A DNA stretch of 64,000 nt, taken from assembly GCF_014287795.1 (NCBI RefSeq), contig NZ_JACOON010000006.1:194024-258023 (forward strand), given 5' to 3'. Within the stretch, counting starts at the first letter, position 1, and each line of letters opens with the position of its first letter. Made by a program: the position numbers and the translations under genes. The notes under the pieces were generated by a model that was not told the DNA's origin, did no database searches, and was given only the letters and a program-made list of their open reading frames with translations. This stretch comes from Christensenella tenuis. GTDB lineage: Bacteria; Bacillota; Clostridia; Christensenellales; Christensenellaceae. Positions 27,311 to 27,404 of the stretch are shown one piece after another.

Positions 27311-27404
27311 GTCTGTCTGTCTGTCTGTCTGTCTGTCTGTCTGTCTGTCTGTCTGTCTGTCTGTCTGTCTGTCTGTCTGTCTGTCTGTCTGTCTGTCTGT
27401 CTGT
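27311..27404. repeat. tetranucleotide microsatellite (GTCT)23 (= (AGAC)23 on the minus strand) upstream of the surface-protein gene
   Basis: 94 bp of uninterrupted GTCT units, read directly. The + ORF 27292..27501 is just its translation (CLSVCLSV...). Confidence 0.95.

Follow-up and report, generated by a model that had tools for sequence, protein, structure and literature searches.

The window, a stretch of 64 kb of Christensenella tenuis DNA, carries on its minus strand a gene for a large surface protein of 1459 aa (22810..27189; start codon ATG at 27189), here called the adhesin, which is the presumed target of the switch described below. The protein possesses a signal peptide, Gly-rich beta-helix-like repeats, Flg_new and DUF7601 domains and, at its C-terminus, an LPXTG-like APQTGD motif followed by a hydrophobic segment and KKLKK. 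Its homologues bear Beta_helix domains, and the identical NCBI entry is named "DUF7601 domain-containing protein [Christensenella tenuis]". The signal peptide, Gly-rich repeats and C-terminal arrangement bear out an earlier note on this DNA, which had described the product as a beta-helix, sortase-anchored surface protein. The gene also has its own ribosome-binding site, the Shine–Dalgarno (SD) sequence AAGGA at 27204..27200 (minus strand); thus, a surface-structure gene of the kind needed for a switch like that of the pil1 and pil3 pilus operons of Streptococcus gallolyticus is present.

On the 5' side of the module lie two YbaK-like (tRNA_edit) genes, both on the minus strand (28863..28384 and 28355..27906). 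The strong terminator of the upstream YbaK-like gene, with 13 pairs and a U-run (27777..27806, minus strand), insulates the repeat-adhesin module. A third YbaK-like paralogue with an aminoacyl-tRNA editing domain is located at about 20930..21402 on the plus strand, and all three fall within 8 kb. Between the YbaK terminator and the leader discussed below, a 61-aa ORF (27442..27627, minus strand) with a strong SD, AAAGGAGG, was observed; it contains the promoter-like site P1, was called as 60 aa by the gene caller in the metagenome contig L001, and gave no Pfam or NCBIfam match. Immediately downstream of the adhesin gene, the ORF at 22350..22760 (minus strand) looks plausible in its N-terminal half and odd and of low complexity in its C-terminal half, and several metagenome contigs stop inside it, at 22515..22550; it could be a gene that has been truncated, or it could mark a second edge of the variable region. 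Farther away, a low-GC stretch at 43000..46000 (0.42-0.445 vs ~0.53 elsewhere) may represent a horizontally acquired segment.

Upstream of the adhesin gene, 120-215 nt from its ATG, lies a perfect tetranucleotide tract of 96 nt (27309..27404), which reads (ACAG)24 on the minus strand and (CTGT)24 on the plus strand. Tandem Repeats Finder reported a period of 4, 24.0 copies, 100 % matches, 0 indels and a score of 192, in agreement with direct reading of the sequence. This is the sole long microsatellite of the 64 kb, all other tandem repeats having at most three copies; the 12-mer AGACAGACAGAC occurs 21 times in the window, always within the tract, against 0.04 occurrences expected. Chance cannot account for such a tract, and the observation in the earlier note is confirmed. 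That note had given it as (GTCT)23 at 27311..27404, about 100-190 bp upstream of the gene: this is the same tract in another phase, with two bases at the low end missed, and the upstream placement stands with the distance corrected to the values above.

The tract is real and not an assembly artefact, since three independent metagenome assemblies (L001, L004 and L006) match the window at 100 % identity as far as the tract, enter it at the same junction and then end. Breaking within the tract is the usual behaviour of short-read assemblers at such repeats, and all contigs found via the YbaK-like, ArsC-like and adhesin proteins end in or before it. Metagenome scans with the two tract flanks gave no matches, and none of 20 exact peptide look-ups, for ten length forms of the leader and ten of the antisense peptide, found a counterpart. 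In this material, no repeat-number polymorphism was observed at the locus, which counts against a switch. Two further contigs, L002 and L009, are 98.5-99 % identical to the window and diverge from it exactly at 27776, after the YbaK-gene terminator (L002 position 3580, L009 position 816). The repeat-adhesin module thus appears to be accessory, or strain-variable, within the species, because both contigs carry other DNA from that point; the different gene found there starts MAIYIRGKGKKKDK...

The whole tract is enclosed in a short leader ORF on the minus strand (27303..27428), with ATG at 27428..27426 and, at 24 units, a TAA stop at 27305..27303. An SD-like AAAGGG (27438..27443, minus strand) precedes the ATG by 9 nt, and the encoded peptide of 41 aa reads MFPSAIIF(TDRQ)8G. 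As in the pil1/pil3 leaders, a short ORF with SD and ATG therefore contains an entire repeat whose unit is not a multiple of three. The leader SD is only moderate (AAAGG), which counts against an attenuator operating through this leader. On the plus strand, the 69-aa ORF at 27292..27501, encoding (CLSV)n, was rejected as an antisense by-product of the repeat without an SD; neither its exact sequence nor any of nine length variants occurs in the protein collection. Known RNA leaders and riboswitches were likewise ruled out, as an Rfam search of the leader returned chance-level matches alone (E >= 0.4, far below gathering scores).

Two promoter-like sites precede the repeat on the minus strand. 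P1, TAGACA-18-TGcTATAAT, has an extended -10 element (27467..27496; 11/12 consensus matches plus TG) and a predicted transcription start at about 27460, upstream of the leader ORF. P2, TTGACG-17-AATAAT (27409..27437; 10/12 consensus matches), overlaps the leader start codon, the ATG at 27428 falling between its two hexamers, and its predicted transcription start lies in the first repeat unit. A transcript started at P2 would therefore lack the leader start codon, and if P2 were the main promoter, the leader would be untranslated. The tract thus lies downstream of both sites and does not occupy the promoter-spacer or promoter-distal position of repeats of the hif or nadA type. Between the tract and the adhesin gene, the consensus scan called no promoter-like site; a lone TATAAT (27230..27225, minus strand), with no accompanying -35 element, follows the hairpin T2 and could be a weak independent promoter.

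Two hairpins were found between the end of the repeat and the adhesin gene. The mini-hairpin T1, CAGGG-GUAAA-CCCUG (27297..27311, minus strand; 5-bp stem; -8.7 kcal/mol), draws its 5' arm from the last repeat unit and holds the 24-unit TAA stop in its loop; it also appears in other fold predictions. T1 may be a pause site, or a terminator for ribosome-free transcripts. The second, T2, resembles an intrinsic terminator with a U-run (27234..27270, minus strand; hairpin 27270..27239), has a 13-bp stem, AAACAUCUAUUUU/AAAAUAGAUGUUU, with the loop CAUUGC, and ends 45 nt before the adhesin ATG, so that a terminator stands between leader and structural gene. Its folding energy is -11.5 kcal/mol (z = -5.9), 0/200 shuffles fold as well, and it also appears in minimum-free-energy folds. 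The terminator consensus scan missed T2 because its stem has just 2 G-C pairs. T2 is AU-rich and of modest stability, which counts against attenuation in this leader.

The consequences of a change in unit number were followed by rebuilding the locus in silico with 19 to 30 units. At 24 units, and also at 21 and 27, translation ends at the TAA at 27305..27303, in the T1 loop and 35 nt before the T2 hairpin. At 23 and 26 units (44 and 48 aa), and also at 20, it ends at a TAA at 27290..27292 (minus strand), 22 nt before the hairpin. At 22, 25 and 28 units (64, 68 and 72 aa), it crosses both arms of T2 and ends at a TAA at 27226..27228 (minus strand), 11 nt after the hairpin. The three outcomes at 24, 23 and 25 units (-35, -22 and +11 nt) thus include one frame that stops at least about 28 nt before the terminator and another that stops beyond it. 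All three frames close 38-116 nt before the adhesin ATG, which rules out a repeat fused to the adhesin ORF; the tract is outside the coding sequence of the regulated gene, and an in-ORF translational switch is not what is found here.

All elements required for a leader-peptide attenuator are present in the required order, namely a promoter-like site, a leader ORF, the tract, T2 and the adhesin gene, and the tract is probably the variable core of such an attenuator, switching the adhesin on and off at random. In this proposal, the positions of the elements and the three frame outcomes were read from the sequence, and promoter use, coupling of translation to transcription, slippage and the ON/OFF assignment were inferred. 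Transcription would start at P1, at about 27460, and a ribosome would load at AAAGGG-N9-ATG (27428) and translate the repeat as (TDRQ)n. Replication slippage would add or remove units and, with a unit of 4 nt, each change would shift the frame in which the ribosome leaves the tract. With the 24 units of this genome, or with 21 or 27, the ribosome would halt at the first TAA past the tract, 35 nt short of T2; with 23 or 26, it would halt 22 nt short of T2. After either early stop, T2 would fold and most transcripts would end before the adhesin gene, giving an OFF or low state. With 22, 25 or 28 units, a leader of 64-72 aa would carry the ribosome across both arms of T2 to a stop 11 nt after the hairpin; the hairpin could not form, RNA polymerase would read on, and the adhesin would be made from its own ribosome-binding site, giving the ON state. 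By the rule known from pil1, 24 units are predicted to be OFF or low, and the gain of one unit or the loss of two is predicted to turn the gene ON.

Since the tract lies wholly inside the leader ORF and upstream of a terminator, unit changes would frameshift the leader peptide. The earlier note had proposed a contingency (phase-variation) switch for the adhesin that acts on transcription, by phasing of a promoter or activator site or through leader structure, and not by a frameshift. The switch itself emerges as a strong candidate from the layout of leader ORF and T2 and from its recurrence in relatives, and the final effect is most likely on transcription, via T2. Promoter or activator phasing in place of a frameshift is not supported, given the position of the tract, which is downstream of P1 and P2, inside an ORF with SD and ATG, and upstream of a terminator.

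The closest homologues of the adhesin (P0002 and P0003; 62-63 % identity) are encoded on Logan contigs L137 and L138, from other samples, both of which begin within a (CAGA)n tract that is degenerate in L138. Past the tract, by about 65 nt in L137 and about 50 nt in L138, each contig has a GC-rich terminator hairpin with a U-run (-18.7 and -29.4 kcal/mol, respectively), followed by a ribosome-binding site and ATG; these hairpins cannot be aligned with T2 of the window. Each contig has a frame that closes 2-4 nt past the tract and another that runs on through the hairpin, and in L137 the read-through frame ends in an ATGA that overlaps the adhesin start. The layout of the putative switch is, to judge by these contigs, conserved between them and the window, while the sequence is not.

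When one genome per species was scanned for (AGAC)>=10, at least 120 records were obtained, and among the matches listed, most came from gut Clostridia, including Lachnospiraceae, Oscillospiraceae, Ruminococcus, Blautia, Peptacetobacter and another Christensenella. That such loci are rarely reported in Clostridia, as the earlier note remarked, holds for the literature searched; in the genomes they are not rare. In that literature, no report of AGAC/GACA repeats or of leader-peptide phase variation in Clostridia was found, which does not prove their absence. Some of the records (L103, L126, L128, L018, L045, L054 and L130) are kilobase-scale compound microsatellites of AC, AG, AGAC and AGGC with up to 135 units in metagenome-assembled genomes (MAGs); these look like eukaryotic host contamination or binning errors, not bacterial contingency loci.

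The (AGAC)n loci sort into two classes, T (terminator, window-like) and F (fused in frame). In class T, all frames close soon after the tract and a strong terminator follows, with the next gene starting 54-400 nt after the tract. By a crude test, the downstream gene has a signal-peptide-like N-terminus in 24/33 class T loci among the matches listed. In about 28 species among the matches listed, as well as in both adhesin homologues, the next gene has the same orientation and the cassette lies 30-150 nt from its ribosome-binding site. Among the matches listed, the longest frame reaches the terminator in 25/28 class T loci (18.7 expected from shuffles, P = 0.003), and a stop falls within 5 nt of the tract in 18/28 (11 expected, P = 0.0035). 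Although significant, these figures fall short of being overwhelming, since chance alone makes at least one open frame fairly likely. The peptide tail after the repeat depends on the frame and is not conserved between loci.

Class F loci carry the tract as an in-frame part of a long ORF. The fusions include joined hsdS halves, 5'-end fusions to an Acyl_transf_3 O-acyltransferase, a GtrII glucosyltransferase or an AMP-binding enzyme, and a tract inside an EcoRI-like methylase (L057, L058, L074, L102, L110, L127; L046; L053, L061, L032; L050 for the loci other than hsdS). Among the matches listed, roughly one in two of the class F loci shares its frame with an upstream start, the others being out of frame, which is what a mixture of loci in the ON and OFF states should show. 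Two half-hsdS ORFs are joined by (AGAC)n in many Lachnospiraceae and other Clostridia, the tract encoding a (TDRQ)n linker between two Methylase_S domains (L024, L093, L099, L116, L120, L068, L100, L113 and L049). At these loci, the Type I specificity subunit would be made in full or in truncated form depending on unit number, leading to phase-variable methylation specificity.

Both classes share an upstream sequence block, and the resulting cassette can be read as having the layout P1, SD, P2, start codon, repeat and T1. Among the matches listed, 48/48 non-redundant cassettes have a start codon that is open into the repeat (33.6 expected), 39/48 combine such a codon with an SD (9.7 expected), and 27/48 have an ATG with SD (4.7 expected). 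The cassette is therefore under selection for the repeat to be translated from a start codon upstream of it. A P1-like -10 element occurs at the same relative position in 28/48 of the related cassettes among the matches listed, against 16 expected. In one MAG (CAKRQU01), two paralogous cassettes, L023 and L080, precede prepilin-like genes and have near-identical flanks with repeats of 51 and 79 nt. This seven-unit difference suggests, indirectly and from a pair matched by eye, that unit number changes faster than the flanks; an ungapped flank comparison for paralogue pairs with differing unit number proved too crude.

Conservation extends to the two elements adjoining the repeat. An element of the P2 type, TTGACA-N16-18-xAxxxT, ends 1-5 nt before the repeat in 46/48 cassettes among the matches listed, and within its -10 hexamer A2 and T6 are each kept in 47/48 non-redundant cassettes, again among the matches listed. 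P2 is conserved at the nucleotide level across differing reading frames. A reading of the TTGACA...ACAATC block as a conserved peptide ("LT...TILT") was accordingly ruled out, as the -10 hexamer is conserved in different frames; being "in frame" is uninformative here, because every (AGAC)n frame encodes the same cyclic peptide. Several roles can be envisaged for P2: it might act as a sigma-dependent pause during which the lead ribosome loads, or as a dedicated repeat-proximal promoter, by which transcription of the tract would be kept up and transcription-dependent slippage driven; a source of short (ACAG)n RNA is a further idea. For T1, a counterpart CTGTC that pairs with the last unit is found in 12/28 related loci (0.43 expected) and, combined with a U-run, in 10/28 (0.07 expected), both among the matches listed. 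An "LSFC" peptide motif after the tract was ruled out, since CTGTC...TTTT is read in different frames between loci. Within the cassette, T1 might serve as a checkpoint that ends transcripts without a ribosome.

The same two elements give some weight to a transcribed 5'-UTR element that acts without translation, as described for hmw1A, whose heptamer repeats are processed by RNase III, and for uspA2; tract length would then alter RNA folding, processing or stability and thereby the level of adhesin mRNA. A P2 start in the first unit would yield a leader without a start codon, and T1 pairs the last unit with a downstream segment and is conserved across loci, like the repeat-arm hairpin of hmw1A. 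Such an element would leave the conserved SD and start codon open into the repeat unexplained, along with the placement of stops just after the tract and at or after T2; moreover, the same cassette makes in-frame fusions elsewhere and must there be translated from the upstream start. We therefore regard it as unlikely. P2 to T1/T2 could also be taken for an independent small gene, encoding a repeat-rich RNA or a (TDRQ)n peptide, with the adhesin promoter located after T2. A promoter-like site, a short ORF and a terminator do make up a formally complete unit, and the TATAAT at 27230..27225 does follow T2, but this box lacks a -35 element and the scan calls no promoter there. Neither the frame-dependent, unconserved peptide tail nor the constant orientation and short distance to the next ribosome-binding site, seen in about 28 species among the matches listed and in both homologues, would be expected of a free-standing gene, and this explanation is quite improbable.

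Still less credence can be given to the tract as a nadA-like DNA-level spacer that phases an upstream binding site against a promoter after T2, a reading in line with the phasing idea of the earlier note. The tract is indeed about 80 nt upstream of the lone TATAAT, but no credible promoter is predicted downstream of it; two good promoter-like sites precede it and an ORF encloses it, and T2 and the placement of the stop codons would go unexplained. A neutral microsatellite with no regulatory role is scarcely credible, given a perfect tract of 96 nt and the many species that have the same unit in the same cassette, placed in the same way with respect to leader ORF, terminator and surface-protein gene.

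The attenuator proposed for the adhesin may be one instance of something broader. It is conceivable, though this is a tentative reading, that gut Clostridia widely share a modular (AGAC)n contingency cassette, of which the window has one copy, with P2 and T1 possibly adding a new mechanistic layer. Part of the same reading is that the cassette together with T2 precedes genes for secreted proteins intolerant of an N-terminal extension, and that it is otherwise placed in frame with the gene. As far as found, an (AGAC)n contingency cassette in gut Clostridia is undescribed. Christensenella is a much-studied, heritable and health-associated gut genus, and the window locus, the approximately 28 look-alike loci among the matches listed and the two adhesin homologues suggest that gut Clostridia commonly switch large surface proteins in this way. 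If so, many commensal Firmicutes would carry repeat-based contingency loci for adhesins, restriction-modification specificity and surface-glycan modification, and these would be easily missed, since short-read assemblies systematically break at such tracts. The ON/OFF state would be predictable from unit number (here, 24 = OFF and 25 or 22 = ON), which yields predictions that can be tested on how these bacteria colonise and how they evade immunity and phages.

Several repeat-based systems resemble the window in part. In Neisseria nadA, a TAAA repeat serves as a DNA-level spacer upstream of the promoter. Haemophilus influenzae lgtC carries (GACA)n inside its ORF and is a contingency locus that acts by slipped-strand frameshifting; the window has the same repeat unit and presumably the same slipped-strand frameshifting, but its tract is outside the adhesin ORF. 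The (AGAT)n repeat in the 5'-UTR of Moraxella catarrhalis uspA2 reportedly tunes the mRNA level, and it shares with the window a tetranucleotide repeat that follows the transcription start and precedes the start codon of an adhesin gene; we know of no report of a leader peptide or terminator design at uspA2. The logic of the proposed switch is closer to that of the Escherichia coli trp leader, in which formation of a terminator hairpin depends on where the ribosome stands on a leader ORF. Unlike the trp leader, the window has no alternative antiterminator hairpins or regulatory codons, and the signal would be a heritable frameshift rather than the supply of charged tRNA.

A transcribed repeat has been described in the 5'-UTR of H. 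influenzae hmw1A, where units of (ATCTTTC)n form a hairpin with a downstream complementary segment (PMC12721329). The effect is graded with length and needs RNase III, and transcription is required for the repeat to change (PMC12721329). The intergenic position upstream of an adhesin gene is common to both systems, and the repeat-arm hairpin is comparable to T1 of the window; leader ORF or terminator logic is not described for hmw1A.

The closest parallel is found in the pil1 and pil3 pilus operons of S. gallolyticus, in which a leader ORF with 22 (pil1) or 13 (pil3) GCAGA repeats is followed by a stem-loop terminator (Danne 2014, PLoS Pathog 10:e1003860; PMC3894217). In the low state of pil1, the leader stops 39-49 nt before the hairpin, and the gain or loss of one repeat gives a longer leader ending within or after it, such that the ribosome blocks the hairpin and the operon is transcribed (PMC3894217). 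The switch was proven with repeat variants, chloramphenicol treatment and terminator mutants and needs both translation and the terminator; in natural isolates, a stop at least 28 nt before the terminator goes with low expression (PMC3894217). In the literature searched, leader-peptide/terminator phase variation is known from this one Streptococcus species; no report places it in Clostridia, bases it on a tetranucleotide unit or describes it as a widespread cassette with extra elements like P2 and T1.

The two systems share an order of elements: a promoter, for which the window has a promoter-like candidate, is followed by a leader ORF with SD and ATG that contains the whole tract, then by a terminator, and finally by a gene for a sortase-anchored structure that is served by a separate ribosome-binding site. 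Neither has a unit length divisible by three (22 x GCAGA in pil1, 24 x ACAG in the window), and in both one frame stops early, 39-49 nt before the terminator in pil1 and 35 nt in the window, while another ends within or after it. They differ in that pil1 switching was shown experimentally and the window switch is predicted from the sequence, in that both out-of-frame states are ON in pil1 and one of the two is predicted to be clearly ON in the window, and in the two extras of the window, T1 drawn from the last repeat unit and P2 over the leader start. The hosts are also distant, Clostridia (Christensenellales) for the window and Bacilli for S. gallolyticus. Finally, the unit of the window is a tetranucleotide rather than a pentanucleotide, and its flanks are unrelated to those of pil1, with no sequence similarity; the resemblance to the pil1 leader is one of design, not of descent.
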